64,000 nt of DNA from Methanomassiliicoccales archaeon (GTDB lineage Archaea > Thermoplasmatota > Thermoplasmata > Methanomassiliicoccales > UBA472). Location: NCBI GenBank assembly GCA_026394375.1, contig JAPKYJ010000015.1, positions 15,265-79,264 on the forward strand. Reading direction: 5' to 3'. The notes under the pieces were generated by a model, which worked only from the letters and a program-made list of their open reading frames with translations, made no database searches and was not told the origin of the DNA. Below, in pieces: positions 9,616-55,055 of this stretch (positions are counted from its first letter, which is position 1; each line of letters starts with the position of its first letter). The position numbers were made by a program, and so were the translations under genes.

Positions 9616-9617
9616 GG

Positions 9618-9636: not shown

Positions 9637-9644
9637 GAAGAGAA

Positions 9645-12218: not shown

Positions 12219-12317
12219 TCCTTTCCCGTCGGGAAAAACGACTGGAGGGGAGATAAAGCTTCTTAGAGGCCAGGAAGAAGGGAAATGTTATTGTGACCCG
12301 GGACCGTACGGCAAGGC

Positions 12318-13184: not shown

Positions 13185-13242
13185 GCTCCGCACCTCACAC
13201 TTTAAATACGAACGCCAGGATTCGTCGCTAGGGTTTCTCGCT

Positions 13243-14322: not shown

Positions 14323-14367
14323 GCGGTCCACCGTTCCCTAGAAATACTCCCTCGGTAATCGGCGGGC

Positions 14368-15267: not shown

Positions 15268-15269
15268 GG

Positions 15270-15650: not shown

Positions 15651-15742
15651 GCATTCCCCCAATCACATTGGCGGCGCTTAGTAGAAATATGTTGCGACTA
15701 GTGAGCAATGAGGCCGGAATGATTGCGAATTTCGAATAGCGA

Positions 15743-16591: not shown

Positions 16592-16755
16592 TCCCAACAA
16601 AAAAGCCCGTGTTAGTATATATCCCTTGTGGGATGGGACGGGCGCCTGCGAGGCGCGGGACGCCATCCGACCGTCTCTCAAACGAGCGCCCGGTGTATAT
16701 GTCCTCGGCCATAGCACCTTAAAATATCGCCGGGGGATATGCACAGGGTTCGAGC

Positions 16756-17637: not shown

Positions 17638-17638
17638 C

Positions 17639-19704: not shown

Positions 19705-19831
19705 CACGCCACGTATCCCTTCCCACGTATATACAAACCGTTGTGAGATCGGAATCATTCCAGCTCGTGTCGGGCTGGCCAGGAGCGTCCGGCATAAGTA
19801 TTTGATTCCCGGGCGTCATGAGGACGGACGC

Positions 19832-36252: not shown

Positions 36253-36400
36253 ACCAAACCATTCCAAGCCGGCGGAGATGCCCCGGCGTTGTTCGTTTTT
36301 CACACCAGGCATCTAGCTGACAAGGAGCGCATATCGCATCCATTGCCAATAGCATCGCAGGGTTCGGTTGGAAACCTACAAATAACGATTGCCTCATGCG

Positions 36401-38155
<1,755 letters not shown>

Positions 38156-38157
38156 AC

Positions 38158-39071
38158 CTAGGCATAGCCAGTACTGTCGAACTTTGTTTCAATCAGGGGG
38201 GTATAGACTTTAGGCCGGGTCTCCTCGGCCCATAGCCCCCTCACTTGCTCTAGCGCCTTCGTCTCTCTCATGCGCCCATAGTGCTCCTCGGTAGTCCTGG
38301 TGGTCTCGTGTCCCATGGTCACGGATATTGCGGAGAGCTTGCTCGCGTCCCGGTCGATGCACATCCTGGCAATAGGTGTTGCGGAACGTCTTGATGTGGA
38401 AATCTATCTTTTCACCTCCGGGGTCTACGTTCACCAATCGCTGCACCTTCCTCTTGATTTCCCAGAAGCGGGCGGAAGCGTAGAAGCCCGCCTTCCCGCG
38501 GCCATGGAACGCGGGAATCAGGACCTCGCATGCATTAACACCCATCTCGTCGAGCTTCATTCGCCTCTCCTTGAGGAAACGCTTGGCCGCCTCGTGTGCT
38601 GGCGGAAGGACAAGAACCATTCTCTGTCGGCCGTAGGACCTCTCGCCTTTGGGATGACGGACGCGGAAGGTCCAGTTCCTCAACTCCAAGTCCTCAAGGT
38701 TCGCGAGGCGAAGCTCGCTCGGCCTGAGACCGGTGGCCGGAAAGAATGCCGTCAGCAACATGGCGACCTGCCCCGTCCAGCCTTCGCTCCTCTCAGCCGC
38801 CATCTGCAACCTGATAACTCCGCCTCATCCAGTGACTTGAGATCCTTGGGTGCGGCGGTCGGCAAGCGTTCGCCCTCCACTGCGTTCGCCCTCCACTCTC
38901 ATCTGCTGGATGACAGGACTGCCAGAGAACGTCGTCACCTTGTCCAGTAGTCTGATCAGCTTCGACCAGTACCCAGAATCAAGACCGTTCCTCCAGATTA
39001 AGAAAGCCTGGACTATCAAACTAAGTTCTTCTCGCCTCCTGATGACTGAAATACTCTCTTGGCTTGGTCAT
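38158..39071 (-). pseudogene. Tyrosine recombinase/integrase, disrupted by several frameshifts
   Basis: Recombinase segments lie in different frames. These are MTKPREYFSHQEARR (39071 downward), VQAFLIWRNGLDSGYWSKLIRLL, TGLRPSELRLANLEDL...HIKTFRNTYCQ, and the C-terminal MGHETTRTTEEHYGR carrying the catalytic His/Tyr region. Confidence 0.7.
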
Positions 39072-39301
39072 CTTCTCGACCTCAGGGCTTTCTTACTTCC
39101 ATTCTGGACCATCAGTAATAAACTGGGAAGCCACCCGCGTGCTTGTTCAATATGATAATTGCTTAGGGTTGGCGATGTAATTACTAGATTGGCGGCCTAT
39201 TCATAGTCTGACCTGTCGGCCGCGTCGTTGCCAATCCATTGCAGATCAGTTGTCGGCTCCAAAGGCAAGGATATTAAGGCGGGCAGAGTGTCGTCTATAT
39301 C

Positions 39302-39661
39302 ATGGACGCCGACAAGATTCTCCGAGAGATGGAGAAGAATAGTGGGGAGGTCTGCAACCCATTGATCCTGACCTCCAAAATCATGCCTGAATGGATACCC
39401 CGACAAGCTGAGGAGGGCAAATTCGTGATGAGCCTTCCCAACGTACCACCGAAGTACAAGCAGCTCATAATGATCTCAGTGGCAGCAGCTCTCCAGAACA
39501 AGCAATGCACCGAGTACTTCATCAAAGTCGGGACGCATATGGGGTTGACTAGCAAAGAGATTGGAGAAGCTATTCTAGTCGCCCGATTCGCAATGGCATC
39601 AACGATATTTTCATCGGCCGAGGAAGGGTTTCACTCGCTAATCGAATCGGAGAGTAAGTAA
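39302..39661 (+). CDS. Carboxymuconolactone decarboxylase (CMD/AhpD-like) family protein
   Basis: PPKYKQLIMISVAAALQNKQCTEYFIKVGTHMGLTSKEIGEAILVA resembles the CMD helical core. Confidence 0.65.
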   Translation: MDADKILREMEKNSGEVCNPLILTSKIMPEWIPRQAEEGKFVMSLPNVPPKYKQLIMISVAAALQNKQCTEYFIKVGTHMGLTSKEIGEAILVARFAMASTIFSSAEEGFHSLIESESK

Positions 39662-39733
39662 AGCTGCAAATTTGATAGGGCATTTCCGTGAAAGGTCACG
39701 GGGCAAAAGGAAAGCGCGCAGCTCATCTTCTGC

Positions 39734-40066
39734 CTAGTCGAACACGAACTCCACGCTGTTCTCCTTGTTCTTTCTTGCGTTGGACTGCGCGATCATGCCC
39801 GCCTCGAGCCATGCGGCGGATAGTATGCCAGCCGGCACCAGGCAGTTCGCACTCATCCTCGTCACCCTCATGCGGTCGAAGACCTTGCTGTGCTGCTTGT
39901 CCGTTAGGTCCGTCAGCGTCAGCTCCTCCAGCCCGCTGGCGAACTCCTTGACGTTGTCGCACGGCGTTGTGACTTGGACTTTGTATGTTCCCTCTGGCGT
40001 TTGCGTAACCTCAACGGTCGTCGTCTTTGCGCACAGGTTCATGTTGACCTTCACTTTAGATGACAT
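39734..40066 (-). CDS. Small 3-Cys protein of unknown function (last gene of the acr3 operon)
   Basis: The ATG at 40066 is preceded by GAGGGGAG. The product MSSKVKVNMNLCAKTTTVEV...TTPCDNV...SANCLVPAG matched no family I recognise. Confidence 0.5.
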   Translation of the reverse strand: MSSKVKVNMNLCAKTTTVEVTQTPEGTYKVQVTTPCDNVKEFASGLEELTLTDLTDKQHSKVFDRMRVTRMSANCLVPAGILSAAWLEAGMIAQSNARKNKENSVEFVFD

Positions 40067-40126
40067 GTTTACTCCCCTCATTTTGTACGTTCCGTTCCTC
40101 TGAATGCCGATTGAGCAATCGGATTC

Positions 40127-40753
40127 CTATTCCTCCTCTGACCTCTTTATCAAGAATGCCGGCAACTCGAAGCCGCTGATCGGCCCCGTTTCGACATTCC
40201 ACCTGGTCATTATCCCGGTCTGCTTCTCTATACTGGCGCATAATCCAGGTATAATGAGGGTCCGGTGGTTGACTTTGCCAGCGACCGCGCTGTTCGTCAG
40301 ACCGCGCATCACGGTCATGGGGCTCATCAACTTCATGCCCGCAGCATGATCTATCGTGAACCCTTTGGTCTCCGTGGGCACGATGTATGCGCTGACCTTG
40401 GGGGCTTTCGAGAATATCAGGTTCAGGACGTGGATCGTGACTCCCGAATTGCCCGTAATGAGCACCGGAGAGTCCGGTCCGGGAGAGTTCACTTCGAACA
40501 GCTTTTCCGCGACGGTACTCATGGAGGCGTCCGCCTCATGGACCTCCAATTTGATTGATAGCGCTCCGGCCAGCGACTCGCTCATGAGAAGCGCCATCTC
40601 GGGGCAGTCTTTGACTTTCGCCTTACCTTCGCTCAATGCCGCAGCGAACTCCCTGCAGGTCTTATATCCGCAGCTGCCGCAATCCTTCCCTGGAAGATAC
40701 TTGACGATGTCATCCGGCGACATCCCGTAGAAATTGACAGCTTCCACCACCAT
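40127..40753 (-). CDS. Truncated CFeSP-large-subunit/HgcA-like protein: N-terminal [4Fe-4S] motif plus a corrinoid-binding Rossmann-like domain
   Basis: YLPGKDCGSCGYKTCREFAAALSEGKAKVKDCPEM fits C-x2-C-x4-C-x16-C as in the CdhE/AcsC N-terminus. DSPVLITGNS...TETKGFTIDHAAGMK...NHRTLIIPGL...GPISGFELPAFL aligns by eye with the corrinoid domain of CFeSP/HgcA. The ATG at 40753 lies 1 nt from the upstream stop. Confidence 0.6.
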   Translation of the reverse strand: MVVEAVNFYGMSPDDIVKYLPGKDCGSCGYKTCREFAAALSEGKAKVKDCPEMALLMSESLAGALSIKLEVHEADASMSTVAEKLFEVNSPGPDSPVLITGNSGVTIHVLNLIFSKAPKVSAYIVPTETKGFTIDHAAGMKLMSPMTVMRGLTNSAVAGKVNHRTLIIPGLCASIEKQTGIMTRWNVETGPISGFELPAFLIKRSEEE

Positions 40754-40754
40754 A

Positions 40755-41027
40755 TTATGCACCCTTCTTCTTGCCCTGCCCAGCAAATTCGATTTGAGCT
40801 CTCTCCTTCTCGTGCAATAGCGATTCAGCGAATTCCAGCATGCGCTCGTCCCCTTTCTCACTGATGATCTTGGCCAGATTGATCGCTCCTTGAATGTCCT
40901 CTTCGGGGACTCCCAGCAGCCTAGCCTTCTCCAAGTGGTGCTTAAGGCAAGGCTGGCAATGTCCAGCTACCGATGCTGCTATCGCCGTGATCTCCTTGCT
41001 TTTCTCATCCATTCTGACCCTCTCCAT
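40755..41027 (-). CDS. CMD/AhpD-like protein with a CxxC motif
   Basis: ITAIAASVAGHCQPCLKHHLEKARLLGVPEEDIQGAINLA resembles an alkylhydroperoxidase AhpD-core-type CxxC. Three candidate ATGs (41072, 41027, 41012) all overlap the acr3 3' end. Confidence 0.7.
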   Translation of the reverse strand: MERVRMDEKSKEITAIAASVAGHCQPCLKHHLEKARLLGVPEEDIQGAINLAKIISEKGDERMLEFAESLLHEKERAQIEFAGQGKKKGA

Positions 41028-42156
41028 TCTGCCGGGATGCCCCTCCAATTCTTTTCGAGAGCACTTTGCCATCTGGATCGTAATACCTTCTTCTTATCCA
41101 GAAGGCTGCATTCACCAAGCTTATCAGAACTGGCACCTCCACGAGCGGTCCGATTACTGCAGCGAACGCCACCAGCGAGCCGATTCCAAATATGCCTATT
41201 GAAACCGCGATGGCTAATTCGAAGTTGTTGCTGGCCGCGGTGAAGCTCTGCGCCGTCGCATGAGGATAATCGAACTTCATCTTGATCGATAATCCAAAAG
41301 AAAGGAAGAACATGATTACGAAGTAGATGACCAGCGGAATGGCAATCCGGACCACATCAAATGGCTGGTTAAGGATGTATTCGCCCTTGAAGGCGAACAT
41401 GACCACGATGGTGAAGAGCAATGCCAGTAGCGAAATTTTGCCTAGCTTGGGCATTAGGTTGTTATTGTACCAGTCCGCGCCCTTCCTTGGCAGAAGCAGG
41501 TATCTGGTCGCAACCCCCATGGCGAATGGGATTCCCAGATAGATGAGGACGCTCTGGGCCACCTGCCAGACACCAATATCGATCTGGGTGCCCGAACCCG
41601 GGACTATCCAATCGGATGCCACTGCAATGAGGAAGTAGGCATAGAATGAATACAGCAGTATCTGGAATACGGAGTTGAGCGCGACCAGAATGGCCGCATA
41701 CTCCGAATCTCCCTCCGCCAAAGTGTTCCACACGATTACCATGGCGATGCATCGGGCAATGCCCGTTAGAATGAGACCAATTCGGAAGAAGACGTTGTCC
41801 GGCAGGAAGATCCAGGCAAGGGAGAACATCAGGAGAGGACCGACAATGTAGTTCAAGGCCAGCGAGGTGCCGAACATCTTCTTGGCCTCGGGTTGCCTGG
41901 GTATCTCCTTGAGTTCCTCGTACTTGACCCTGGCCAACGGAGGCCACATCATCAATATGAGGCCGATGGCGATCGGTATGGATGTCGTACCTACGCTGAG
42001 CTCGTTGAGCGCGCCCGCGATGCCGGGAATGGCGGCCCCCAATGCGATCCCCACGAATATCGCTATGAATATCCAGAGGGTCAGAAACCTATTCAGGAAA
42101 GACAGCCTTCTGGCACCCTCCTGCGCTTTCGGTTCATCTTCGCCAACCTTGGTCAT
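41005..42156 (-). CDS. acr3: ACR3-family arsenite efflux permease
   Basis: It has about 10 TM helices. FLNRFLTLWIFIAIFVGIALG...MMWPPLARVKYEEL...NNFELAIAV are typical ACR3 motifs. The ATG at 42156 is preferred over the TTG at 42162. Confidence 0.9.
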   Translation of the reverse strand: MTKVGEDEPKAQEGARRLSFLNRFLTLWIFIAIFVGIALGAAIPGIAGALNELSVGTTSIPIAIGLILMMWPPLARVKYEELKEIPRQPEAKKMFGTSLALNYIVGPLLMFSLAWIFLPDNVFFRIGLILTGIARCIAMVIVWNTLAEGDSEYAAILVALNSVFQILLYSFYAYFLIAVASDWIVPGSGTQIDIGVWQVAQSVLIYLGIPFAMGVATRYLLLPRKGADWYNNNLMPKLGKISLLALLFTIVVMFAFKGEYILNQPFDVVRIAIPLVIYFVIMFFLSFGLSIKMKFDYPHATAQSFTAASNNFELAIAVSIGIFGIGSLVAFAAVIGPLVEVPVLISLVNAAFWIRRRYYDPDGKVLSKRIGGASRQNGEGQNG

Positions 42157-42192
42157 GCTCAAGCCCGCCCCGGATACTCCCGATGAAGAGTA

Positions 42193-42212
42193 ATTTCAAT
42201 TATTATTGAAAC
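42193..42212. promoter_or_regulatory. Palindromic operator candidate in the acr3/arsC divergent promoter
   Basis: The site reads ATTTCAA-TTATTA-TTGAAAC. A GATATAAATAAG TATA-like box follows at 42221-42232. The same palindrome recurs at 45474 and 46654. Confidence 0.45.
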
Positions 42213-42282
42213 GATAAGTAGATATAAATAAGTTCCTAACCATCGTTACCTTGGAATCCAGTTAACAGAGTAGAGGCAGGAA

Positions 42283-42699
42283 ATGAAGTCAGTCTTATTC
42301 ATATGCACCCATAATTCAGCTCGCTCACAGATGGCAGAGGGTCTGGTCAACTCGCTCTATTCGAAGGTCCTTCGCGCCGAGAGCGCTGGCACCAAGCCTA
42401 ACCAGGTGAACCCTCTAGCCATAGTGGCAATGGCCGAAATGGACATAGATATCTCCAACCATAAGTCCAAGAGCCTCAGCGAGTTCGAAGGCCAGCAATT
42501 CGACTATGTCGTAATGGTCTGCTCGGATGCTGCTGAAACCTGCCCTTTCTTTCCGGGAGGCGGAGAGCAGATCCATCATGGCTTCGATGACCCAGCCTCC
42601 GTGGAAGGAACCGATGAAGAGAGATTGCGAGCTTTCAGGAAGAGCAGGAATGAAATCAATAAGTGGATAATTGATAATCTTGTATTGCCCAGGGCGTAG
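42283..42699 (+). CDS. arsC: Arsenate reductase, LMW-PTP (thioredoxin-coupled) type
   Basis: It has the CX5R P-loop (LFICTHNSARSQMAEG) and the distal Cys pair (VCSDAAETCPFF). Confidence 0.9.
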   Translation: MKSVLFICTHNSARSQMAEGLVNSLYSKVLRAESAGTKPNQVNPLAIVAMAEMDIDISNHKSKSLSEFEGQQFDYVVMVCSDAAETCPFFPGGGEQIHHGFDDPASVEGTDEERLRAFRKSRNEINKWIIDNLVLPRA

Positions 42700-42710
42700 A
42701 GGATGTTAGG

Positions 42711-43118
42711 ATGGCCAGAGAGAAAGCGAAGAAGATTGAGTGCTGTGAGGACGCGATGAGTCTGCCCGAGGAGATGGAGGTGGCCGTTCGGCAGCGGGGT
42801 GGGCTGGAGGGGTTGAAGAGTCACGTTCCTGACAGGAAAAGCCTCGCTTCGGAAGCAGAGCTCTTCCATGCACTTTCAGATCCGATTCGACTCCAGATTC
42901 TGCACGCCCTCCTCCTCACTGACCTTTGCCCTTGCCTTCTCAAGGAGATCACGGGGCTTTCCAACTCAAAGCTCTCTTATCATCTCAGCATCCTTGAGGA
43001 ATCGCGACTGGTCGCCTCATCGCCTCGAAAGAAATGGCGTATCTACATGTTGACTGAATTTGGGAAATCTTGGATCAAGACTCGATCAAATCCGGCAACT
43101 GAGCCGGCTGACAATTGA
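42711..43118 (+). CDS. arsR: ArsR/SmtB-family metalloregulator
   Basis: It has LSDPIRLQILHALLLTDLCPCLLKEITGLSNSKLSYHLSILEESRLV, with CPC at the position of the classical ELCVCDL As(III) site. Confidence 0.85.
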   Translation: MAREKAKKIECCEDAMSLPEEMEVAVRQRGGLEGLKSHVPDRKSLASEAELFHALSDPIRLQILHALLLTDLCPCLLKEITGLSNSKLSYHLSILEESRLVASSPRKKWRIYMLTEFGKSWIKTRSNPATEPADN

Positions 43119-43156
43119 AAGGTCGAGAATGGCCGTTCCCGACCATCATTTTCTTG

Positions 43157-44977
43157 TTAGAAGATTTCCTTAGCCAGGGCCCTGAGGTTCTCCACTCCCT
43201 CCGGTGCATGGTCGAGCAGGGGCACCAAGAACAGAGGCACCTTGAACATGGGGCCGATTTCCCGCAAGTACTTCATCTGCTGCTCTCTCCTGCTCTCGAA
43301 GAACGCATTGCGGCCGTACTCCTTGGGCAGGATATAGTTCACTCCTACCAGCGCGGTCTCGATACCCACCTGCTTCCTCAACTCCTGTGACGCCCGCCAT
43401 GCTTCGATGATCGGTGTATACTCGGGATAGACGACGAAAACGAAGGTGCTCTTGTCCTTGGACTTCATCGTATCGATGACGCTCGCGTACTTGTTCCGCG
43501 TTTCATCGGAGGTCTTCTTGGCCAATGTGCCTAGGTCGATAAAACCCTTCCAATCAGAGGGCAGTTCGAGCAGCCTTAGGGTGTGGCCTGTGGGTGCGGT
43601 ATCGAAGATCACAGCCTGGTATTCTTCCAGCTCGAAATAGCTCATGAACTTCTCGAAGGCGGACATCTCCTCGGCGCAGGGAGAGTTGAGGTCCTCCTCG
43701 ACCGACTTCTGGACCTCCTCCGGTTGGTCCTTCACCGAATCGATTATTCTTTTTTTGTACTCATCAAGGGCCACCTTCTGGTCGATCCTGGCCACATCCA
43801 GGTTCTTGACCCCCTTTACCGGAGCGGGCGCCGACCCGACCTCCTGCTCGAATATTTCCTGGAGATGGGATGCGGGGTCGGTGGTGACGATGAGCGTTCT
43901 CAGCCCTTCGTCGGCGAGATACACGGACGTCGCGCAGGCCAGAGTGCTCTTGCCCACCCCTCCCTTCCCGGTGAAGAAGATGTATCTTGTGCCATTGGCG
44001 GGACGCAGCAGCTTTCGGACCGCGTTTAGGTCGCTCTTCACTATGGCCGAGGAGGCTCGTGCCTTTTCGGAGGCCTTATGCACCTGTACTTTCCGGCCAT
44101 CGAACAGATAGGAAGCCACAGATTCCAAAGCGTCAACCCCGTTGATCTCGGTGTCCTGGAGGGGATACTGCAGTTCGTTGAGCACGAAATCGCTCTTGAT
44201 CTCCTCCAGCATCGTGTCCTCTTCGGCCTTCTTCTTACGGAAGAAGGAATCAGTAGCCACATCAGCGGGAAGTACGCCATTGATGATCAGGAAGTTGGTC
44301 CTGATGCCCAGCTTGGAGAGCTCAACCATGCTCCGGTTGGTCTCGATAATCGATGACCTCTCCGGTTTAAGGACGAAAATGAATGAAGTCTTCGAGCCGT
44401 CTTGGAGGTATCCGATAGCCTTCTTGTACTTGGCCTTGGCTCCCTGCAATGAGGAACTCGGTCCGATGCACGTCGAACCACCCTTGTCCAGCTCAGTGGA
44501 CCAGCTGCTAGGCAGCTCTAGCAGCCGGATGGTATGGCCGGTCGGTGCAGTGTCGAAGACGACTGCATCATACTTAGGATCGTCCATGAACTCGATGAAG
44601 CTGTCGAAGGCCGCCACCTCGTCAACGCATGGGCTCTTCAATTGCTCCATCATCGCGTCCAGGTTCTTCTGGTCCAGGATGCCCTTGAGGGGGGAGACCA
44701 TCCGCTCCCGGTACTCTTGGGATGCGGCGTCCGGGTTGATCTCGACCGCATAGAGGTTAGGGACGTTGCTTATGGCCATGATGCGGTGCCCGATCTTCTG
44801 TCCGAAGATATCTCCAAGGTTCGGCGCGGGGTCAGTGGTCACGATGAGGGTCTTGTAGCCTTTGCGGGCTAGCCATACCGCAGTCGCGCAGCTCATGGTG
44901 CTCTTGCCCACCCCTCCCTTTCCACTGAAGAAGATGAACTTGGTCTTGCCGTTTTCTGGCTCAATCAATGTGTTCAT
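43157..44977 (-). CDS. arsA: Arsenite-stimulated ATPase ArsA (duplicated halves)
   Basis: It has two P-loops (GKGGVGKST) and two DTAPTGHT signal-transduction motifs. Confidence 0.95.
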   Translation of the reverse strand: MNTLIEPENGKTKFIFFSGKGGVGKSTMSCATAVWLARKGYKTLIVTTDPAPNLGDIFGQKIGHRIMAISNVPNLYAVEINPDAASQEYRERMVSPLKGILDQKNLDAMMEQLKSPCVDEVAAFDSFIEFMDDPKYDAVVFDTAPTGHTIRLLELPSSWSTELDKGGSTCIGPSSSLQGAKAKYKKAIGYLQDGSKTSFIFVLKPERSSIIETNRSMVELSKLGIRTNFLIINGVLPADVATDSFFRKKKAEEDTMLEEIKSDFVLNELQYPLQDTEINGVDALESVASYLFDGRKVQVHKASEKARASSAIVKSDLNAVRKLLRPANGTRYIFFTGKGGVGKSTLACATSVYLADEGLRTLIVTTDPASHLQEIFEQEVGSAPAPVKGVKNLDVARIDQKVALDEYKKRIIDSVKDQPEEVQKSVEEDLNSPCAEEMSAFEKFMSYFELEEYQAVIFDTAPTGHTLRLLELPSDWKGFIDLGTLAKKTSDETRNKYASVIDTMKSKDKSTFVFVVYPEYTPIIEAWRASQELRKQVGIETALVGVNYILPKEYGRNAFFESRREQQMKYLREIGPMFKVPLFLVPLLDHAPEGVENLRALAKEIF

Positions 44978-45033
44978 TTAACTCACTCCATCGTGGATGA
45001 TCGTGTTCATGATTTAGCCTCCAGCAGTTCATC

Positions 45034-45360
45034 TCATTGCGCAGCTAGGAGGGCTGACTTCATCTCGTCGTAAGTCATGTATCTCTCCTTGACGAGGATC
45101 TTCCCGTTCAGCACAGTTATCGGCAGGACGTCGGTTCCTTTCGTCTTAACTAGCTTGAGCACCTCAGGTTCTTCCAGATAGGCCTGAGCGTTGAAGGACA
45201 TAGATGCTCTGATGATTTTCGCATCGGGGAACTCGGCCTGCAGCCTCCTGACGTCCTCGGTTAACTGGATGAGTGCCTTATCTGGCTCTGGACCACAGAT
45301 GCCCGTGGAACAGCACAGCATCCCTTCATAAATAATCAGCTTCTTTGACATTTTCATCAC
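45034..45360 (-). CDS. arsD: Arsenic metallochaperone/repressor ArsD
   Basis: It has MLCCSTGICGPEPD, the Cys12/13/18-type motif, on a thioredoxin-like fold. It lies immediately upstream of arsA. Confidence 0.9.
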   Translation of the reverse strand: MMKMSKKLIIYEGMLCCSTGICGPEPDKALIQLTEDVRRLQAEFPDAKIIRASMSFNAQAYLEEPEVLKLVKTKGTDVLPITVLNGKILVKERYMTYDEMKSALLAAQ

Positions 45361-45473
45361 CGAATATCCTCTTATGTGCCAATCCTCACCCTCTTCTTCT
45401 AGATGATCGGCATTCTCTGGCCTTCCCTTGGCTCAATCCCTCAAACGTGTTGGTTGTCCTAGGCGCGATTGTC

Positions 45474-45493
45474 ATTTCAACAGATTTTGAAAT
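45474..45493. promoter_or_regulatory. Palindromic operator candidate upstream of arsDA
   Basis: The site reads ATTTCAA-CAGATT-TTGAAAT, a perfect 7-bp inverted repeat. The 12-mer TTGTCATTTCAA occurs twice (45469-45480 and 45514-45525), flanking a TATA-like GTTTATTAG on the coding strand. Confidence 0.45.
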
Positions 45494-45687
45494 ATCGTTA
45501 TGGCTAATAAACTTTGTCATTTCAAAAGTATCCGAATCGATGATCATACACACCGTTCTCATGATGTGGGGCTACGATTCGGGCAAGAGGAAGGGAGGTT
45601 TGTTGGTCAAACGGTTCTCCAACGTGAACAATGATCTCCGTGACCTGGTGGACGCGTCCGTCTATCTCATGTTGGTCGGTATCGGAC

Positions 45688-46341
45688 CTAAGGCCGTAGC
45701 TGGCTCTCCACTAGACTCGCCACTCTGTTGACGTCTTCCTGATTTGGATTGAGCTGGTCGTAATCCTTTTTTATCCCCAGATTGGTGACGACCACCTGTA
45801 ATGTGGGCTCGATGCCGGCATGCCTCAGGGTTTTGTAGGCGCACTGGGCGGCACAGCCGTCTAGGGATACGACCCGGTTGGCCTTTTTCGCCGAGGTGAT
45901 GAAGCCCTGCCCGTGTGATCCAACTCCGGCTAGGCATGAGAATTTCCCCAATCCTCGGTTGACCAAGGACTTGGCTACCTCATTGGATATCTGCCCGACA
46001 TTAGAGCCTCCGGAGCATGGATAGAACACGGCCCCCGTACCGGAGCATCCGCAGGTGGGATTAATCACCTTGATATCGGAGGCCGGCAGTGTTCCCTTGT
46101 CCTTCCCCACGGTCTCGATCATTTCCTTTATCTCTTCCACGCTGGGCACTCGACCCATCGACCGGATTTCGCCGTCGATAACCAGCCCGGGCGTCATCGT
46201 GATGCCCTTGCGTATGAGCATCTCGAAATCCTCCACTTTGAGGATCTGAGCTTCGATGCCCAATTCATCTACCGCCCTCTGGGCATTGTTCATGAGCCGC
46301 TCGCAGTTACTGCACCCCAGTCCGAAAACCTCAATTATCAT
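45688..46341 (-). CDS. Fusion of a thioredoxin-fold (MTH895/TM0996-like, CxxC) domain and a DGC zinc-binding domain
   Basis: The N-terminus is IIEVFGLGCSNCERL...TPGLVIDGE. The C-terminus is CGCSG...YPCSGGSNVGQ...VVSLDGCAAQCA, which carries the DGC motif. Confidence 0.75.
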   Translation of the reverse strand: MIIEVFGLGCSNCERLMNNAQRAVDELGIEAQILKVEDFEMLIRKGITMTPGLVIDGEIRSMGRVPSVEEIKEMIETVGKDKGTLPASDIKVINPTCGCSGTGAVFYPCSGGSNVGQISNEVAKSLVNRGLGKFSCLAGVGSHGQGFITSAKKANRVVSLDGCAAQCAYKTLRHAGIEPTLQVVVTNLGIKKDYDQLNPNQEDVNRVASLVESQLRP

Positions 46342-46592
46342 GACTTAGCCCTCCGATGATATTCCTCCAACAGTGCCCTCTCGTACTCCGAACTTGCGTT
46401 CGAGGGCACATAGTTGAAGACTTTCACCTTCTCCAGCAATGCCTCTCCGATCTCGGCATCGCTCTGGAGCCCCATCGCCCTGATCTCGCTCATGACCTCT
46501 TCGAGCTGAGAAAGACCGATAGGGCTTCCGTTTATCATGAGCTGCTTTATCTTGCGTGCGGCTGCCTCCGCGCAACAAGGCTTGTCTTCCAT
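46338..46592 (-). CDS. Small CC-motif protein of unknown function
   Basis: The product is MEDKPCCAEAAARKIKQLMINGSPIGLSQLEEV...NYVPSNASSEYERALLEEY. Its stop overlaps the start of the Trx-DGC gene (ATGA). Confidence 0.45.
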   Translation of the reverse strand: MEDKPCCAEAAARKIKQLMINGSPIGLSQLEEVMSEIRAMGLQSDAEIGEALLEKVKVFNYVPSNASSEYERALLEEYHRRAKS

Positions 46593-46653
46593 ATCTCGCA
46601 CCTACAATTTGCTCGGTTTCTTACAACGACACGATTGCTAATGACGATTAGAT

Positions 46654-46673
46654 ATTTCAACATTATTTAAAAT
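46654..46673. promoter_or_regulatory. Third copy of the ars palindrome, overlapping a TATA-like box
   Basis: The site reads ATTTCAA-CATTAT-TTAAAAT, with one mismatch in the right half. On the coding strand it reads ATTTTAAATAATGTTGAAAT, about 60-80 nt upstream of the 46592 start. Confidence 0.4.
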
Positions 46674-47650
46674 GATTCTTGCTATGAATTCTTGCCACCT
46701 TGGCCATTCTCAGCCATGGCTATGGCAAAAATGATATCACAGCTCTTTCACAATCCTCCCTTAGGCTTGCTTGCAGATGGAGGGTCCCATTGGAGTATAC
46801 CCGTGCCACCACGCCGATTTCCTCCATCAGGATGGTGAGCTGGGGGCCCTGTGCCACAACATCCATGAAGCCTGCCTCCTCAAGTCTTCTGGCGAGAAGA
46901 TCAAAATCAATGTTAATGCGCTCTCGCGGTAGCGCCTCATATTCTTCAATGTTCCGGCTGAGCCCACTCGTGCAAATCCTCGGGGAGTAATCCGGTCGTT
47001 TCCGTGGACTGTAGTCCCAATCGGTGCACCCATGTCCAGTCGCGAACTAGCCCCTTCCATGCCCCAACCCCTAAGATCCTTCTAGAGTCTCAACGAAAAG
47101 AGAGTAAGGCGTTTCCTAAAAAGGCCAGTAATCCGTTTCGGTCATCTGGGAGTTGGCAGGATTTCGTCCCTAATTCCCAGTGGAGAATCGTCGTTCTGGA
47201 TGGGTCCATTTGTTGTGTTCGGGCAGACCCACCACTCTTTGTAGCCAGCACAGTCGTCATGCGGTCAATGAAGGGGGTTCCTTGGATCGCTCATAGGTTA
47301 AAAAAGTGGATGAAGGGGTTTGGCGCCTCTCTCGGAGGTCAATACCCTCCTGATTGAAGTGCGACGTTCGAGTACTGGCTAGATGACGGGACACATTCTG
47401 GGGGATCTACTAGATGGGACCAATACAAATGACCATCCTCAGCGCCCGGGCTTCCTATTTGGGGATCTCCTCCAGAAGCCGTTCTCAGTGACTTGGGACA
47501 TAGTCGCGGTTCACCGCCCCAGTGACATGTGGGGATTCTACGGTCAGTTTGTGTCGCACTTCCCTGGATCGGAGTCAACACAGTTCTATTACATCTGCTA
47601 CAACTCCCTGGCCGACCGCAATAACAACTACGATACATAAACCATAACCA

Positions 47651-47674
47651 CGCAGAGGGTCGATTCCCTCTGCG
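47651..47674. other. Perfect 9-bp stem-loop
   Basis: CGCAGAGGG-TCGATT-CCCTCTGCG is followed by the pyrimidine-rich CCTTCCTTTC. It lies about where G+C appears to rise again. Confidence 0.3.
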
Positions 47675-47921
47675 CCTTCCTTTCAGCTCAAGGGAATGGC
47701 GAACATACCTGTTGATTCGGGGCAAATGCTCCTCTACCCGAATCTATGGGCGAAGGTCAATCTCTTAACCCAAGAGACACCATGCGATAGAGACTGACGT
47801 GAAGGGTCGCCGCGCAGACATGAGAGCATGCCAGAGCAAGAGAGCGCGGTTTGGCTTATTGGGCTGCACGACGCGGGCCAAGGCTGTCGAATGTGGCTGC
47901 CGAGGTTCCACATGTCGTTCC

Positions 47922-48245
47922 CTAGAATGGTGAATAGCTCATCGTGCCGAGCACGTAGATCGCAAACGGGATGATGATGTAGAGGATGCCCGTGGCCCCG
48001 CATACAACCAGAAACGCATCGTTGCCGGATGCCATCGAGCCGCGCCTTCGTTCGTCGACTGCTTCAATGGCTGCGAAGAAGAGGAACCAAACAGATGCAA
48101 TCCATAGCGCGAATTCCGCAACCAGAACCAGCAGTCGCTCATCTTGGGTCCACATTCCACCAGTCAGATACGGGACGAGCAAGATGATTGCACCAGTGAC
48201 GAAGAGCCCAATCGAAAGAAGGTACCTTCGATGTCTGACCTTCAT
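47922..48245 (-). CDS. Membrane protein (3-4 TM), unknown function
   Basis: It is a hydrophobic 107-aa ORF (LLSIGLFVTGAIILLV, LVLVAEFALWIASVWFLFFAAI, ILYIIIPFAIYVL). Confidence 0.4.
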   Translation of the reverse strand: MKVRHRRYLLSIGLFVTGAIILLVPYLTGGMWTQDERLLVLVAEFALWIASVWFLFFAAIEAVDERRRGSMASGNDAFLVVCGATGILYIIIPFAIYVLGTMSYSPF

Positions 48246-48380
48246 AGTCTGCCATAAATGGATTGCTAATCTGATTAATGAAGATTTTGGGCCGTGTCCG
48301 CAAGTCCGATGAGGTCAATCGAATCGTTGTCCTCCCTGACCAATTTCACTGCCCGCCAGTTGACCGAGGCTTGACTGACA

Positions 48381-49336
48381 CTAAGGCACTGACTTCCATG
48401 CCTTCAGGACGACGAGGACCGGGTCCCGCATCGACCTCCGGACCCCCTCAATCGTCGCCGCGATGACCAAGGCCTGCAGCGGCTCGCTGAGGCCGACTGG
48501 GTCCATGACGCCAATGCCGTCCTCGAGCTCGAGACTCCTTGTGAAAGGAACAGGCTCGAGCCCGGTCGGGATGAGGTCCATTGCGCGAGCAGCGTGTGAA
48601 TCTCCTTGCCATGCCGTTGGCTTCTCGGGCCGTTCCCTGACACGTTGCAGCACCCGTCCGACCGAGCTCGCGTCCTTCGTCACGAGCTGAGCCGTAGGGC
48701 TCGAACATCAGGTTTCTCTCCTCGAGCGATGCCGCGAGGAGCACCTCAACGCAGCACCAGTCGACCACTCTTGGAAGAACGGGCCTGGCGGTCGCCCTGG
48801 ATGTCGCTCTCGCCACTCTTGGCTCGGAAGGCGATCGCCCTCCGACCAGAGTGCCGAATCAGCGACTCAGGCGTCGTCGTCTTCCCGGAGAGCTGCGTGA
48901 GTCCAGTCGCGGTCAGGTGGTGCAGTGGGATCCATACCGGCTCACCGGTTCCGGACTCGTAGCCGAGGAGGACGGTGCTTTTGGAGTCACGGACGCACCA
49001 GCCTCGGCTGCCCGCAGCACAGACATACGACACGGCGATGGTTGCGACCGAACGAACGCCCGTCGATGAGCCAGTCGCTTCGATGGCACCAATGGCACTC
49101 CTCCTCGAACAACAGGCATAAAATGAGGCGGTCGAAGAACGGCGGCTCACCGCATCACCTTCTTCAGGTCCCCGGCCATCTCGTCGTTGATCGGGATTGA
49201 AGCGATATGTCCATCTCAAGCTAGAAAAATGGAAAGGGTTTGAGTGCTCGCAGTAAGTCAATCCCCGCAGATTGAAGCGTCGTGTCGGACATCTGGCTTG
49301 GAGAATGTCACATTCTGGGGAATGTGATCCAGACAT
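48381..49336 (-). pseudogene. Possible decayed P-loop NTPase (two fragments in different frames)
   Basis: The upstream fragment has GEPVWIPLHHLTATGLTQLSGKTTT, a Walker-A-like motif with non-canonical spacing. The downstream fragment ends in DPVLVVLKAW, a degenerate Walker-B-like motif. Flanking sequence is low complexity. Confidence 0.3.
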
Positions 49337-49392
49337 TCCATTTGCTGATCAATAGGTTCACTCAAGCACCCTCTTCAAATGGTCCAAAACCC

Positions 49393-49938
49393 TCAGTTCT
49401 TCGGTCGACGTCGCCAGAGGACGAAGAACAGCACTGCCGCGATCGCTGCGATCACGACCACAGACACGACGATCAAAGAGGGGAACATCTCGACGAAGGC
49501 ATCATGCGCGTTCTCGGCGTTGAGGCCGAAGGCCGCCCTCTCCATCTGATGCGTTCCGGGAGTGACCCGGTCCGTGTTGTCGATGACCATGTGATAGCGT
49601 GTGCCGTCGCGCAGGCTCACCGTCTCATTGACAACCTGACCAGCCAAATGACATCCCGGGTCTCAGGTCGGGTTCTCCCAGCGCTTGAACGACTCGAACT
49701 GCTGATCGTCGAGCAGGAATAGGTCCAGCGAAGCGGTGGAGTACATAACGTATAGGCCGAAGTAGGCTGAAGCCTGTTTCTCGGTGACGAAGGTCGCCAC
49801 CTCGCGGTAGGCGTCGGCGTTCAAGGTCACCGTTCCTGTGCGAGTGAGTTCAGCGCCGACCGCCGGCTGAGACGACGACGCCACGAGCAGAAGAACAAGA
49901 AGCGGCCCTGCCAACCCAGCAATCCAACATCCCTTCAT
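49393..49938 (-). pseudogene. Signal-peptide / C-terminal-anchor protein interrupted by one in-frame TGA
   Basis: MKGCWIAGLAGPLLVLLLVASSS...FKRWENPT-TGA-DPGCHLAGQVVNETV...SLIVVSVVVIAAIAAVLFFVLWRRR. The two track ORFs 49663.. and 49393..49647 share one frame, and the stop lies at 49663-49665. Confidence 0.45.
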
Positions 49939-49988
49939 CCTCACGGGTGGATTCAGCGGTTTGGCACAATAAAAGCATTTTGAATGCC

Positions 49989-50360
49989 TTAGAGGTGCCG
50001 CCCAATCGTCCAGAAAGCGGCTCCCACGGCCAATAGAGGAACGGAGATCTCCCACCGCTGCAGCAATTCCAAGCCCGCGATCAGGGCGAGGATGATGCCC
50101 AGAACCCCCAACCACCCCGCTCGGCGATAGGCCTCGCGAGTGCGACTCAAGTGCGCGATGAACGGGCTGATGGCCAGGTAGACGACCACTAGGACGAGGA
50201 CCCAGGACGCGAATTGCAAATAAGGTGCCACGGCCCCGACCAAGCTCTGTACCATCGTCCCTTTGGGGTCCAGGCCCAAGTAGGCCAGGACACCGCAGGC
50301 GAAAGCGCCCAGGAGCGGACCCCAGGACCTTCTCCACCTTCGGTACCGCCTGCGCGCCAT
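49989..50360 (-). CDS. Membrane protein (about 4 TM), unknown function
   Basis: The internal ATG gives MARRRYRRWRRSWGPLLGAFACGVLAYLGL... The upstream part of the track ORF is non-hydrophobic filler. Confidence 0.45.
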   Translation of the reverse strand: MARRRYRRWRRSWGPLLGAFACGVLAYLGLDPKGTMVQSLVGAVAPYLQFASWVLVLVVVYLAISPFIAHLSRTREAYRRAGWLGVLGIILALIAGLELLQRWEISVPLLAVGAAFWTIGRHL

Positions 50361-50523
50361 CTCAGAACCCCGGCCCACGAGCGACTCCCGGGGATAATAA
50401 TCTAGCATCACCGACGACCGGCGGAGGACCGCGAGCCAGCAACGGTCGGGAACCACCCCTGGAGAACACCAATAGTTATTTAAGGCGAACGACATTAGGG
50501 CGACTTACCTATAGGTGTTTGGA

Positions 50524-50919
50524 ATGGTCGAGTTCAAGGCCGTTATCAATGATGTGAAGAACGGGAAATCCTACCAGGTGCCGGTCACAGGGCATCACGC
50601 CAACTCTCTCATCGGAAAGAAGATCGGGGATGTGGTGGACGGAATATTCGTAGGGCTACCTGGCTACAAGCTCACAATCACGGGGGGAAGCGACAAGGAC
50701 GGCTTCCCCATGCGCAAGGACCTGCCTGGAGTCAAGAGGCGCAAGCTCTTGCTCACCCGGGGAATCGGTTTCAATAGCGATGAGAAGGGACTGCGCAAGC
50801 GCAAGTCGGTGCGGGGCAACGCCATTTCTCCGGAGACGTCACAGCTCAATTTCAAGGTCTCCGCTCCTGGCTCCAAGCCCATCGAGGATCTCATCAAGGT
50901 CGAGGAGAAGAAGAAGTGA
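50524..50919 (+). CDS. rps6e: Ribosomal protein S6e
   Basis: It has [15 protein letters not shown]...[16 protein letters not shown]...RKSVRGN. Confidence 0.9.
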
Positions 50920-52151
50920 TGAGCGAGGACCGACAGCCCGAGATCAACATCGGCATGATCGGTCACGTCGACCACGGCAAGACGACTTTGACCAAGGCCC
51001 TGAGTGGGCAATGGACCGATCGTCATTCAGAAGAGATCAAGCGCGGCATCTCCATTAGGCTAGGCTACGCGGACGTCAATTTCTATAAATGCCAGCAGTG
51101 CGAAGGTTCGAGCGCCTACGTCAACCAACCTACCTGCCCCAACTGCGGCGGAGAGGCGGAGTTGCAGCGAGCCGTGTCCTTCGTGGATGCGCCGGGTCAC
51201 GAGACTCTCATGGCCACCATGCTCTCTGGCGCGGCGATCATGAACGGTGCGCTACTGCTCGTGGCAGCCAACGAGAAATGCCCCCAGCCGCAGACGAAAG
51301 AGCACCTGATGGCGCTCAGCATCATCGGCGTGGACAAGATCATCATCGTGCAGAACAAGATCGACATCGTCACCAAGGAAGAGGCCCTGGCGAACTACAA
51401 GGAGATCAAGGAGTTCGTCAAGGGCACCATAGCGGAGAACGCCCCAATCATACCGGTTTCCGCAAATCACAACGTCAACATCGACAAGCTCATCGAGACC
51501 ATCGAACAGATCATCCCAACGCCCAAGCACGACACCAAGAAGCCGGCCCGGATGTTCGTGGCCAGGTCCTTCGACATCAACAACCCGGGCTCACCGCCTG
51601 AGTCCCTCCGCGGTGGTGTGCTGGGAGGCTCCCTCATCCAAGGCAAGCTGGAGATCGGGGATGAGATCGAGATCGCCCCGGGCAGGAAGGTCGAAGCCGG
51701 TCGCGAGATTACCTGGGAGAAGATCACCACCAAGGTGGAATCGCTGCACGCTGGCGATGCGGACCTGGAGGTCATCAAACCGGGCGGGCTCATCGCCATA
51801 GGAACGAAGCTCGACCCCGCCATGACCAAGTCGGACGGACTGACGGGACGGGTAGTGGGCAAGCCTGGGACCTTGCCCCCGGTCCTGCACAAGTTCGTCA
51901 TGACCACAAAGCTGCTGGAGCGGGTGGTCGGTGCGGCGGTGGACCTGGCGGTGGAGAACATCAAGACGAACGAGCCGCTCATGCTCAGTGTCGGGACCGC
52001 TACCACGGTAGGGGTGGTCACCAGCGCGCGCGTGGACGAGTCAGAGGTGGCATTGAAGATACCCGTCTGCGCGGAGAAGAATCAGCGGGTGGCCATCTCC
52101 CGCAAGATCCAGGGCAAGTGGCGGCTCATCGGCTACGGCATCATCAAGTGA
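50916..52151 (+). CDS. eif2g: Translation initiation factor aIF2 gamma subunit
   Basis: It has [10 protein letters not shown], a zinc knuckle (CQQC...CPNCG), DAPGHE and QNKID. Confidence 0.95.
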
Positions 52152-52158
52152 TCCAATC

Positions 52159-52518
52159 ATGCAGAAGGTCGTTCTGGACACCAATGCGCTTCTCATGCCC
52201 TTCGAGTTCTCTCTGAACATCGATCACGAGCTGCAGCGTCTTCTCGGACAGTGCGAGGTCTATGTGCCCGGTCCGGTGATAGGCGAACTCAAGCGCTCGA
52301 CCAGCAAGCATGCATCTGCGGCGCTCTCATTGGCTCGCAAGTACAACCTCTTTCACACCGAGAGACAGGGCGACGAGGGCGTCATGGAGGTGGCGGGGAA
52401 GCTGCAGGCGTTCGTGGTCACCAACGACGCTCTACTGCGCGCGAGAGTGCGCAAGCGCGGGCTGAAGGTCATCTTTCTAAGGTCCGGGAACCACCTGGCA
52501 TTTGACGGGGACTACTGA
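52159..52518 (+). CDS. PIN-domain protein (Fcf1/COG1412-like) typically linked to aIF2-gamma
   Basis: It has VVLDTNALLMPFEF...VVTNDALLRARVRKRGLKVI, with acidic PIN residues at the N-terminus and TND. Confidence 0.8.
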   Translation: MQKVVLDTNALLMPFEFSLNIDHELQRLLGQCEVYVPGPVIGELKRSTSKHASAALSLARKYNLFHTERQGDEGVMEVAGKLQAFVVTNDALLRARVRKRGLKVIFLRSGNHLAFDGDY

Positions 52519-53367
52519 TCAGATCAGAGGTCGAGGCGGGTCCTCGGGACCGCTGGCCTTGTTCACCCCGGTCTGCCGCATCCGCTCCTCCAGGATGGAC
52601 TTGCCCGTTTCACTGGCTGCGTAGACGGGCACCTTGGTCCCAGCCTGTAGAAGTGCACGGCGCTTCGCCTCTTCCCGCACCCAATAGGAAGCGCAGCCGG
52701 AGACGATGTCGCACGTCTGGAAGAAGGCGCGGGCGTCCTTTTCATCCACGCCCGTGGTGTGGACCGCGAACAGCATCACATGGTCCGCGAACCCGTCCCG
52801 GATCATCTGGGCATCCTGGGCCTTGGCGACGGTCACCCCCACCCTACGATGACCGAGTCTGAAAGCCAGCTCGGTCCCGGCGAACTGATCGATCGTTCCT
52901 CTGTCAGGATCGAGGACGTTCTCCCTGCCCACCGTCTCAATGATCTCCAGGATGGGGGTGGTCTCCATCGTGCCTGACATCCGTCCACCTATCCCTTGGA
53001 TGAGCTCTGGGTCGGTGACGATCACGGTTCCAGCGCCCTCGCAGACCAGGACCGCCGCATCCAGCAGCTTCTGGGAAACGCACATGGCCAATAGTTCGGA
53101 GATGCCAAAGGAGAGGAAATCGGCCATGCGCATCTTGCGCGAAGGCATGCATAACCCGAAGTCCTTGATGCGGAATTCTATGTTCTCTCTGACCACGTCG
53201 GAAGTTATCGTCTCAATGCCGCGGTGCTTGAGGAAAAGCGGGCAATAGGAGACCTGGGGTCTTCCCACGAACGTCACTTTCCCATTCTCGATGACGACCT
53301 TCGTTCGACCCAATGCCTCGATCACGTGCTTGTCCTTCATCGCTCTCATCGGCGAATCAAGATGCAC
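52519..53367 (-). CDS. DUF2099 / putative methanogenesis marker protein 8
   Basis: DKHVIEALGRTKVVIENGKVTFVGRPQVSYCPLFLKHRGIE...NIEFRIKDFG matches my memory of marker-8 proteins. This is unverified. Confidence 0.6.
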   Translation of the reverse strand: MHLDSPMRAMKDKHVIEALGRTKVVIENGKVTFVGRPQVSYCPLFLKHRGIETITSDVVRENIEFRIKDFGLCMPSRKMRMADFLSFGISELLAMCVSQKLLDAAVLVCEGAGTVIVTDPELIQGIGGRMSGTMETTPILEIIETVGRENVLDPDRGTIDQFAGTELAFRLGHRRVGVTVAKAQDAQMIRDGFADHVMLFAVHTTGVDEKDARAFFQTCDIVSGCASYWVREEAKRRALLQAGTKVPVYAASETGKSILEERMRQTGVNKASGPEDPPRPLI

Positions 53368-53537
53368 TAGATAAAAAGGATTGGAGGAATCATTCGCGGG
53401 ACGAAGGCGATAACGAAGGGACTACCTACCACTTCGCCACCTAGTTACTCAGGAAGTAGTTATATATCGTCGCGCTGATTCCTCTAGCCACGGGTCTGGA
53501 AGCTCTTTCAACGGCCATCCAGATGTGAGGGGAGAGT

Positions 53538-55049: not shown

Positions 55050-55055
55050 CTTTCC

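Follow-up and report, generated by a model that had tools for sequence, protein, structure and literature searches.

A probable composite genomic island with an ars cluster next to infB in a member of the Methanomassiliicoccales

In the 64,000-nucleotide stretch of Methanomassiliicoccales DNA analysed here (the window), the translation gene infB (aIF5B; 36389–38155, plus strand), whose open reading frame (ORF) is 58–85% identical to infB of Methanomassiliicoccales genomes (85% for the best relative), is separated by 12.4 kb from rps6e, with which the conserved array resumes. The latter gene (PF01092, 145 bits) lies on the plus strand, starts at 50515 (GTG) or 50524 (ATG), ends at 50919 and is followed by the genes for eIF2-gamma (50916–52151) and a PIN_9 protein (52159–52518). 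An earlier inspection of the letters alone (the sequence-only reading) had placed the end of the infB block at 38155 and the resumption of the array at 50524, in agreement with our ORF calls, and had stated that the two blocks are contiguous or nearly so in many Euryarchaeota. In related genomes they are indeed close: 13 Methanomassiliicoccales genomes have infB and rps6e 0.77–3.5 kb apart, and in the metagenome contig L039 the distance is about 0.2 kb, i.e., 0.2–3.5 kb across 14 relatives. The two genes are thus tightly linked in these relatives, which do not carry the window's genes between them. Very probably, the segment 38156–49327 is a composite genomic island of 11.2 kb that arose from two integrase-borne elements at the 3′ end of infB. 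These are E-ars (38156–47393), which comprises a frameshifted integrase gene, an intact arsenic (ars) cluster and a conserved right-end arm, and E-old (47394–49327), the decayed remainder of an older element.

The limits of the island are marked by copies of the infB end. The last 15 nt of infB, TTCTGGGGAATGTGA, consist of the four final codons plus the stop codon (FWGM*), and this ending (TTCTGGGGnATGTGA) is conserved across the order. The 15-mer occurs exactly at 38141–38155, where it forms the attL core (plus strand; imperfect inverted half-sites CAACTTC and GAATGTG around TGGG), and again at 49313–49327, the attR core (plus strand); these are the sole matches in the window with up to two mismatches. 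No convincing direct repeats had been found by eye, but the computed search brought them to light. The attR core is preceded by the element-type half-site CACA, giving near-perfect inverted half-sites, CACATTC-TGGG-GAATGTG, and has a counterpart at L035o 4476 in L035, a contig from the same species described below. Inverted half-sites around a short centre are the usual core layout of tyrosine recombinases. The same core is found at the infB end in six further contigs (L002, L004, L035, L037, L038 and L040).

Both right-hand cores of the island are preceded by conserved arms. P arm B (47223–47395, plus strand) is the right-end arm of E-ars and closes with ~60 nt that repeat the 3′ end of the integrase gene, int1, in inverted orientation; P arm C (49225–49312, plus strand) is the right-end arm of E-old. 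The corresponding P′ arm is formed by the 3′ ~60 nt of int1 itself. The integrase 3′ end thus recurs in inverted form in the 60–90 nt that precede 49313 and in those that precede 47396; in the latter case, 47338–47398 matches 38148–38208 at 73% (E 5e-5). In the metagenome contig L036, an arm, an intact core and an integrase-side arm are contiguous. P arm B aligns with the L036 arm at 79% over 186 nt (window 47223–47406, E 5e-34) and P arm C at 71% over 112 nt (window 49225–49330, E 2.5e-6). The L036 site, which belongs to a related element whose cargo differs, looks like an attP or a tandem junction. The inverted 60-nt copies at 47.3 and 49.3 kb were also considered as extra integrase genes; tblastn and a six-frame search with a hidden Markov model (HMM) of the family gave no protein signal there. 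We take them as right-end arms because L036 has the same arm in a contiguous arm-core-arm site, although they might conceivably be the last trace of inverted int copies. The same architecture, with the arm before the right-hand core, is seen in L035 and in L004, which belongs to a different species (infB 77% identical) and in which attL, an int remnant and an arm with TTCCGGGGAATGTGA bound a 1.36-kb remnant.

An alignment of four P arms and eight reverse-complemented P′ arms revealed the common blocks TCAATaCCCnnCTGATTGAA, TACTGGCTA and CACATTC, which are absent from the control arms in infB and downstream. On the integrase side these blocks encode NTPLIE...TGYA*, while on the opposite side they are non-coding, which suggests that they are putative DNA sites. 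Taken together, core and arms would make the attP of the family an imperfect palindrome of ~135 nt with TGGG at its centre (window 38141–38215, 47338–47406 and 49257–49327; L036 reverse complement 3390–3520). One arm of this palindrome is the integrase's own C-terminal coding sequence, and the blocks are inverted in the non-coding arm. The attP arms may serve as arm-type binding sites or may be what is left of an inverted duplication of int.

The gene int1 (38158–39300, minus strand) is convergent with infB and lies directly beside attL, its stop codon (CTA on the plus strand, 38158–38160) being located 2 nt beyond the infB TGA. Both this position and the alignment with homologs confirm that an integrase remnant starts 2 nt after the infB stop, as had been noticed from the sequence. 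Full-length homologs are PF00589 proteins of 356–378 aa, and int1 is colinear with residues ~68/98–378 of these. A tblastn search with the relatives P0003 and P0005 found int1 with an E value of 1e-62, the match being split over two frames at ~38366. The longest int1 fragment scores 20.4 bits against PF00589 and thus falls below the Pfam cut-off of 27.1. Alignment to PF00589 proteins together with the catalytic tail GHETTRTTEEHYGR assigns the gene to the tyrosine recombinases (R...HxxR...Y). The tail is intact in sequence but resides in another frame. At least three disruptions are present: the frame shifts at ~38366 and again at ~38820, and a 16-nt sequence is perfectly duplicated in tandem (two copies of GCGTTCGCCCTCCACT) at 38866–38897. 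As these disruptions are accompanied by the out-of-frame tail and by ~70–100 unrecognisable N-terminal codons, int1 is a pseudogene. Protein-detectable int sequence forms one contiguous stretch (38161–39055, minus strand), and the family HMM found nothing in 46–50.6 kb, so that a split gene of the SSV1 type was rejected.

Intact relatives of int1 are associated with tRNA genes. P0003 directly adjoins a tRNA-Pro gene, as probably does P0005, which is 78% identical to P0003 and has the same gene neighbourhood, and P0004 overlaps a tRNA-Arg gene. In each of these relatives the integrase gene ends at a tRNA gene encoded on the other strand, which places the attP of the family at the end of int. 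The integrases of this family are therefore non-partitioning and not of the SSV type. A tRNA gene was also considered as the target at the locus studied here; ARAGORN detected none in the window, L001, L002 or L004, which favours the infB end. The branch to which the window's integrase belongs uses infB instead of a tRNA gene, and it does so in at least five lineages. The intact integrase with a C-terminal tail most like that of int1 is P0011. On its contig, genes are found for Cas1, a resolvase, MazE and a plasmid-type MTBMA_p00010-like protein, and in L031 (6860–8074) a cas1 gene is located ~2 kb upstream of int. There are thus hints that intact elements of the int1 family are integrative plasmids or casposon-related. 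The family has no match in deposited phage genomes and only relatives of 24–29% in IMG/VR, two pattern scans of viral contigs for a free or viral form of the element yielded chance matches or nothing, and no significant repeat that could serve as attR was present within 10 kb of the tRNA-targeting relatives in L030 and L031.

Integrase 3′ remnants after the infB stop are not confined to the window. They occur in L001–L004 and L035–L040 as well, in all states of decay: ~150 aa in L004 and L037, ~75 aa in L040, 46–58 aa in L002 and L035, and ~120 nt in L039, where the remnant is directly followed by the rps6e promoter. Because int remnants recur there, we regard the infB end as a recurrent integration hotspot in this clade. 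In L002 (infB 78% identical), non-syntenic DNA extends for at least 10 kb beyond the 46-aa remnant (11750–21746) and holds genes for KatG, a TBP paralog, two ABC exporters, PPK2 and a TetR regulator. Neither rps6e nor an attR was found within reach of this segment, which could represent a far larger island inserted at the hotspot or the result of a rearrangement.

The composite structure became apparent by comparison with L035, a 96.6-kb metagenome contig that was found by a pattern scan for the infB-int junction and stems from the same species (infB, rps6e and eIF2-gamma proteins 98–99% identical to those of the window). L035o 1–1301 corresponds to window 37028–38328 (97.6% nucleotide identity) and L035o 2556–10314 to window 47394–55151 (98.1%, including E-old). 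L035 lacks window 38329–47393, i.e., 9,065 nt that comprise the remainder of int1 together with the cargo and P arm B, and carries 1,254 unrelated nucleotides in their place. These encode the 5′ part of a 386-codon (386/389) secreted HExxH protein, the ORF of which is intact across the junction. In the window, only the 3′ tail of this metalloprotease-like gene (HEYAHH motif) is left (47394–47640, plus strand), truncated by E-ars, and the ORF at 47383–47640 matches the C-terminus of the L035 protein only. The HExxH motif of the full-length L035 ORF was seen by eye, and the ORF has weak matches to prealbumin-like folds (SpaA, SdrD_B). Presence/absence polymorphism is thus established for E-ars, which is specific to the window's strain. 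E-old is present in both strains; it measures 3.35 kb from attL to attR in L035, while only 47394–49327 remain in the window. None of its ORFs has a recognisable domain or a Pfam or PHROG match.

The junction between the two parts reads GCAATCTGGTGGGATCTAC in L035 as opposed to CACATTCTGGGGGATCTAC in the window, with homology to L035 restarting at 47394. Here the window has a hybrid core (site B, TTCTGGGGGAT, 47396–47406, plus strand), to which attP contributed the left half, while the right half derives from a secondary site in an E-old gene. In the L035-type gene this core-like site, TCTGG(T)GGGAT, is part of TCTGGTGGGAT. As the intact L035 gene spans that position, the right junction of E-ars is a secondary att-like site. 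The suggestion of a composite island formed in two insertion events is borne out by the L035 comparison and by the second right-end arm with its core, whereas the boundary must be moved from about 47.7 kb to 47394.

Composition follows the same subdivision. The G+C content of 38156–49327 is 0.540, compared with 0.600 and 0.602 in the flanks, and rises stepwise from 0.534 in E-ars through 0.571 in E-old to 0.594 in 49328–50514. Tetranucleotide distances (strand-symmetric, 2-kb windows) reach z = 3–5.3 over 38.5–48.5 kb, with z = 2.5–4 for E-old, and are back at background by ~49.5 kb. G+C at third codon positions is 0.61–0.76 in the ars genes and 0.77–0.88 in infB, ndk, rps6e and eIF2-gamma. 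Three counts made by hand in the sequence-only reading were reproduced exactly (0.300, 0.383 and 0.583), and the compositional deviation anticipated there is present in both G+C and tetranucleotides. Composition, the tight infB-rps6e linkage in relatives and the conspecific contig without 9.07 kb of the segment together establish that this DNA is foreign. The island had originally been drawn from 38158 to 50500; its existence stands but its right end lies at 49327, since 49328–50514 has background composition. This segment is a probable resident spacer, judged native by its composition and its position outside attR. It holds the rps6e promoter region and an ORF for a 168-aa membrane protein (49989–50495, minus strand; weak SPW match), and its last ~60 nt were alignable by eye with the DNA that precedes rps6e in L039. 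No homolog of 49328–50514 was detected by tblastx in the infB-rps6e gaps of relatives, and no Rfam match at E ≤ 0.1 was obtained over 36–52 kb.

The cargo of E-ars (39299–46951) is collinear with chromosomal ars clusters of Methanomassiliicoccales with lower G+C content. Over this segment, blastn alignment with L041 (G+C 0.517) gave 76–85% nucleotide identity, and the gene order is the same in L041, L042 and L043, where no integrase is present within 10 kb. All eleven ORFs of the cargo are intact. The arsenic genes reported from the sequence are indeed there and were assigned by family profiles: acr3 for an arsenite efflux permease (41005–42162, minus strand; TIGR00832, 410 bits, cut-off 282.8), arsC for an arsenate reductase of the low-molecular-weight protein tyrosine phosphatase type (42283–42699, plus; PF01451, 65.9 bits; TIGR02691, 119 bits, below the 174-bit cut-off), arsR for a repressor (42711–43118, plus; PF01022, 44.1 bits), arsA for a two-domain arsenite-stimulated ATPase (43157–44977, minus; PF02374, 500 bits) and arsD for a metallochaperone (45034–45360, minus; PF06953, 85 bits). 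The set of an ars operon, i.e., ArsR, arsenate reductase and efflux permease, is thus complete and extended by ArsD and ArsA. An internal 148-nt repeat in arsA reflects the two halves of the protein. Start-less or frameshifted fragments had also been described for this interval, which is correct for the integrase gene and the decayed right-hand part but not for the ars genes. The closest homologs of ArsA are 81–94% identical (94% for the L041 copy), and all named ones belong to Methanomassiliicoccales, while those of other methanogen lineages range from ~66% identity downwards. On this evidence the donor pool consists of other Methanomassiliicoccales of lower G+C content rather than a distant lineage, and the cargo is an order-typical chromosomal ars cluster that was captured by an integrase element and moved from such a relative.

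The remaining cargo genes encode accessory proteins. Two CMD/AhpD-like proteins are specified at 39302–39661 (plus; PF02627, 34.2 bits) and 40755–41072 (minus; PF02627, 37.2 bits; TIGR00778), the true start of the second probably being internal because its ORF overlaps acr3. A DUF6951 protein (39734–40081, minus; PF22263, 64.1 bits) is ars-linked in L041, L042, L043 and L052 as well. Further genes encode a mini corrinoid/iron-sulfur protein of 208 aa (40127–40753, minus; PF04060 and PF03599) and a fusion of a thioredoxin (Trx)-like domain of the MTH895/ArsE family with a DGC domain (45688–46341, minus; PF13192 and PF08859; TIGR00412, 87.6 bits). The small conserved ORF at 46338–46601 (87 aa, minus) has no family match and precedes the Trx-DGC gene in all related clusters; L041 and L042 have an 82-aa gene at this position. 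The latter two contigs carry two extra genes, for DGC and Fer4/DUF169 proteins, between Trx-DGC and arsD, which the window lacks. At this site the window has a gap (45361–45687) with a G+C content of 0.47 and a patch of 30% at 45481–45540, likely a deletion scar or a promoter region. Family matches revealed no replication, transfer or virion genes among the island ORFs, and the unassigned ORFs had no PHROG matches apart from the integrase, so that the island does not qualify as a provirus.

The mini corrinoid protein combines the Fe-S domain with the corrinoid-binding domain of the large subunit of the corrinoid iron-sulfur protein (CFeSP) and is devoid of the TIM barrel. It aligns with PDB entry 2H9A (E 6e-22) at chain residues 2–54 and 304–440, and the CFeSP loop ...DTDGTSVLTAWAAGK... 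corresponds to ...ETKGFTIDHAAGMK... in the mini protein. Matches to the NCBIfam models for HgcA and HgcAB-like proteins remained below threshold. The family comprises 56 clusters, and all its named members are from Methanomassiliicoccales. An ars-linked arrangement is found in the window, L041, L043 and L052, while family members at 42–53% identity sit beside genes for RACo, CobW and MtaB/MtaC instead.

The anatomy of the locus, its repeats, the difference between the two strains, the homology of the cargo and the targets chosen by the integrase family are direct observations, and from the anatomy we infer the following order of events. The attachment core would consist of the last four infB codons plus the stop, so that integration would regenerate the gene, and each element would carry at its far end the conserved arm followed by the core. 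E-old would already have been resident at the infB end when E-ars, with its integrase gene, the ~7.7-kb ars cluster and the right arm, entered on the infB-proximal side. All scenarios that we constructed pass through a tandem state with attL, E-ars, core and E-old in this order. Subsequently, ~1.25–1.4 kb of E-old would have been lost, including the 5′ part of the protease-like gene and ending at TCTGG(T)GGGAT. This loss could have been mediated by the integrase acting at the secondary site or by microhomology. Once in place, the cargo should confer arsenic detoxification: ArsC would reduce As(V), ACR3 would export As(III), ArsD would hand As(III) to the ArsA ATPase and ArsR would regulate the cluster. 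With at least three frame disruptions in the integrase gene and a hybrid right core, E-ars is now immobile. Four mismatches are present in that core, and the attP-like junction is found only in L036; the island is thus a fixed remnant.

Several observations weigh against this history. No intact integrase that targets infB was found, nor was an empty attB for E-old, for which the form infB-core-TCCAGACATTCC would be expected, and recombination at the infB core is therefore inferred rather than demonstrated. E-ars has no replication or transfer genes of its own that would explain how it travelled. Furthermore, the left breakpoint relative to L035 (38328) lies inside int and not at the core, and the site B junction shares only ~5–8 nt with the core and would equally fit a microhomology-mediated deletion. 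The history may thus have run via homologous recombination or deletion instead of clean integration and excision. Finally, the source of the window is a metagenome-assembled genome; the integrase fragment and the Fe-S protein are annotated there on a contig of 112 kb.

The most serious competitor, which we rate as possible yet clearly inferior, assumes that E-ars and a complete E-old already stood in tandem in the common ancestor of the two strains and that L035 lost E-ars through excision by the integrase or through a deletion ending inside int at 38328; the lineage of the window would then not have gained it recently. Such a loss would explain why the int remnant of L035 stops abruptly where the int of the window continues colinearly, and the three or more disruptions of int1 make it less likely that the element arrived very recently. 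Over the 173 nt of int 3′ sequence that both strains possess, identity is 98.3% (97.5% in the adjacent infB segment), like that of orthologous DNA; such a value would be expected from orthology or gene conversion, but equally from two elements that are closely related. The price is two independent deletions, one per lineage, and the state of the window is derived in at least one respect, the loss of the 5′ part of the protease-like gene. Beyond this lost part, nothing else separates a gain from a loss of E-ars.

We regard it as rather unlikely that the 9-kb segment was swapped in from the infB island of another strain by homologous or microhomology recombination, with no role for an integrase in the lineage of the window. 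A left breakpoint that falls in shared int sequence and not at the core and a right junction with only short microhomology would suit such an exchange, and the review PMC8371274 describes that elements integrated in tandem can swap modules through homologous recombination. The right junction, however, falls exactly where the P arm meets the left half-site of the core, on core-like sequence, which would be rare by chance. An artificial origin of the low-G+C segment, as an assembly or binning chimera joined at sequences common to co-occurring Methanomassiliicoccales, appears very improbable. The contig does come from a metagenome, and the int 3′ end and the core are common to several related genomes and could confuse an assembler. 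Yet int1 is colinear with its homologs across 38328, so that no join exists there, the canonical attR and the L035-type gene share fewer than 10 nt at 47393/4, far below assembler k-mers, and the segment possesses its own matching architecture of int, arm and core. There is hardly any room for a single 12.3-kb element inserted once between infB and rps6e: the lone integrase remnant at the left end and the atypical composition of the whole interval at coarse scale would suit it, but it is refuted by L035, which has the right part without the left, and is contradicted by two right-end arms with cores, by the G+C steps given above and by the exact attR at 49313, which puts the last 1.2 kb outside the island. 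Vertical inheritance is refuted by synteny, composition and strain polymorphism.

Formation of the island from two elements at the infB end agrees with what is known from other archaea. In Thaumarchaeota, 14 of 68 integrated mobile genetic elements (iMGEs) reside in the 3′-distal part of protein-coding genes (PMC6563490). Arrays in which several elements re-use a single att site, and the loss of integrases after integration, are documented as well (PMC6563490 and the review PMC8371274). Such archaeal elements share with the island an integrase gene beside one att site that decayed after integration, non-partitioning (pNOB8- or lambda-like) integrases, direct repeats that include the end of a reconstituted target gene, stacking at one locus and recognition by occupied and unoccupied sites in close relatives. 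The case presented here differs from them in its host order and in that the distal junction of the younger element lies at a secondary site inside the older one. infB (aIF5B) was not seen among the targets named in these two sources, in a search that was not exhaustive. Over the catalytic region int1 is 46–50% identical to the tRNA-targeting P0003, P0004 and P0005, with which it has in common the int 3′ end at the att site and the orientation convergent with the target; unlike int1, these are intact and use tRNA genes, whereas the branch of the window uses the last codons of a protein gene. An archaeal tyrosine recombinase mediating element integration is also found in the SSV1 type, where, however, attP lies inside the int ORF and integration splits int between the element ends, while int1 is one-sided with the core just past its stop. 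Bacterial ars islands and operons (arsRDABC or arsR-arsC-acr3) resemble the cargo in that arsR, arsC, acr3, arsD and arsA reside on horizontally acquired DNA beside an integrase. Differences are the pairing of ArsA with ACR3 and not ArsB, the donor pool within the same archaeal order and the Methanomassiliicoccales-specific accessories (two AhpD/CMD proteins, DUF6951, the mini corrinoid Fe-S protein and Trx-DGC).

A second atypical patch lies at the left end of the window (1–4500; G+C 0.53–0.55, tetranucleotide z 3.2–4.0). It contains genes for an ABC transporter on the minus strand, with an ATPase (791–1558), a permease (1555–2376) and an NMT1-like binding protein (2422–3591), and a gene for an ArsR-type helix-turn-helix protein (4019–4471).

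In summary, the island noticed in the sequence-only reading is real and the interpretation given there is supported, and the phenomenon is ordinary in kind: integration into gene 3′ ends, tandem accretion and integrase decay are principles already known in archaea. The main value of our analysis is one of annotation, with an island at 38156–49327, an integrase pseudogene and an intact cargo. It provides a cleanly resolved case of the acquisition of metal(loid) resistance by a Methanomassiliicoccales methanogen, in which an integrase element very probably brought a complete ars cluster from a relative of lower G+C content to the hotspot behind an essential translation gene, where an older element was already in place. 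The pair of strains with and without E-ars (the window and L035) together with the attP-like L036 offers exact junctions for PCR or recombination assays. Two leads emerge: one is the palindromic layout of the att sites, the other the mini corrinoid protein linked to ars genes. Two speculative readings, to which we give little weight, go further. In one, the integrase would represent a previously undescribed branch of a tRNA-targeting family that switched to the last infB codons and uses a palindromic attP. In the other, the mini corrinoid protein with the AhpD-like, DUF6951 and Trx-DGC proteins would form a Methanomassiliicoccales-specific, ars-linked module for the corrinoid-dependent transfer of methyl groups to or from arsenic. 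How methylotrophic methanogens demethylate arsenic anaerobically has been described as unresolved (10.64898/2026.08.27.747368). If the second reading is true, the corrinoid module would bear on this process, and the island would show that the module has moved horizontally.

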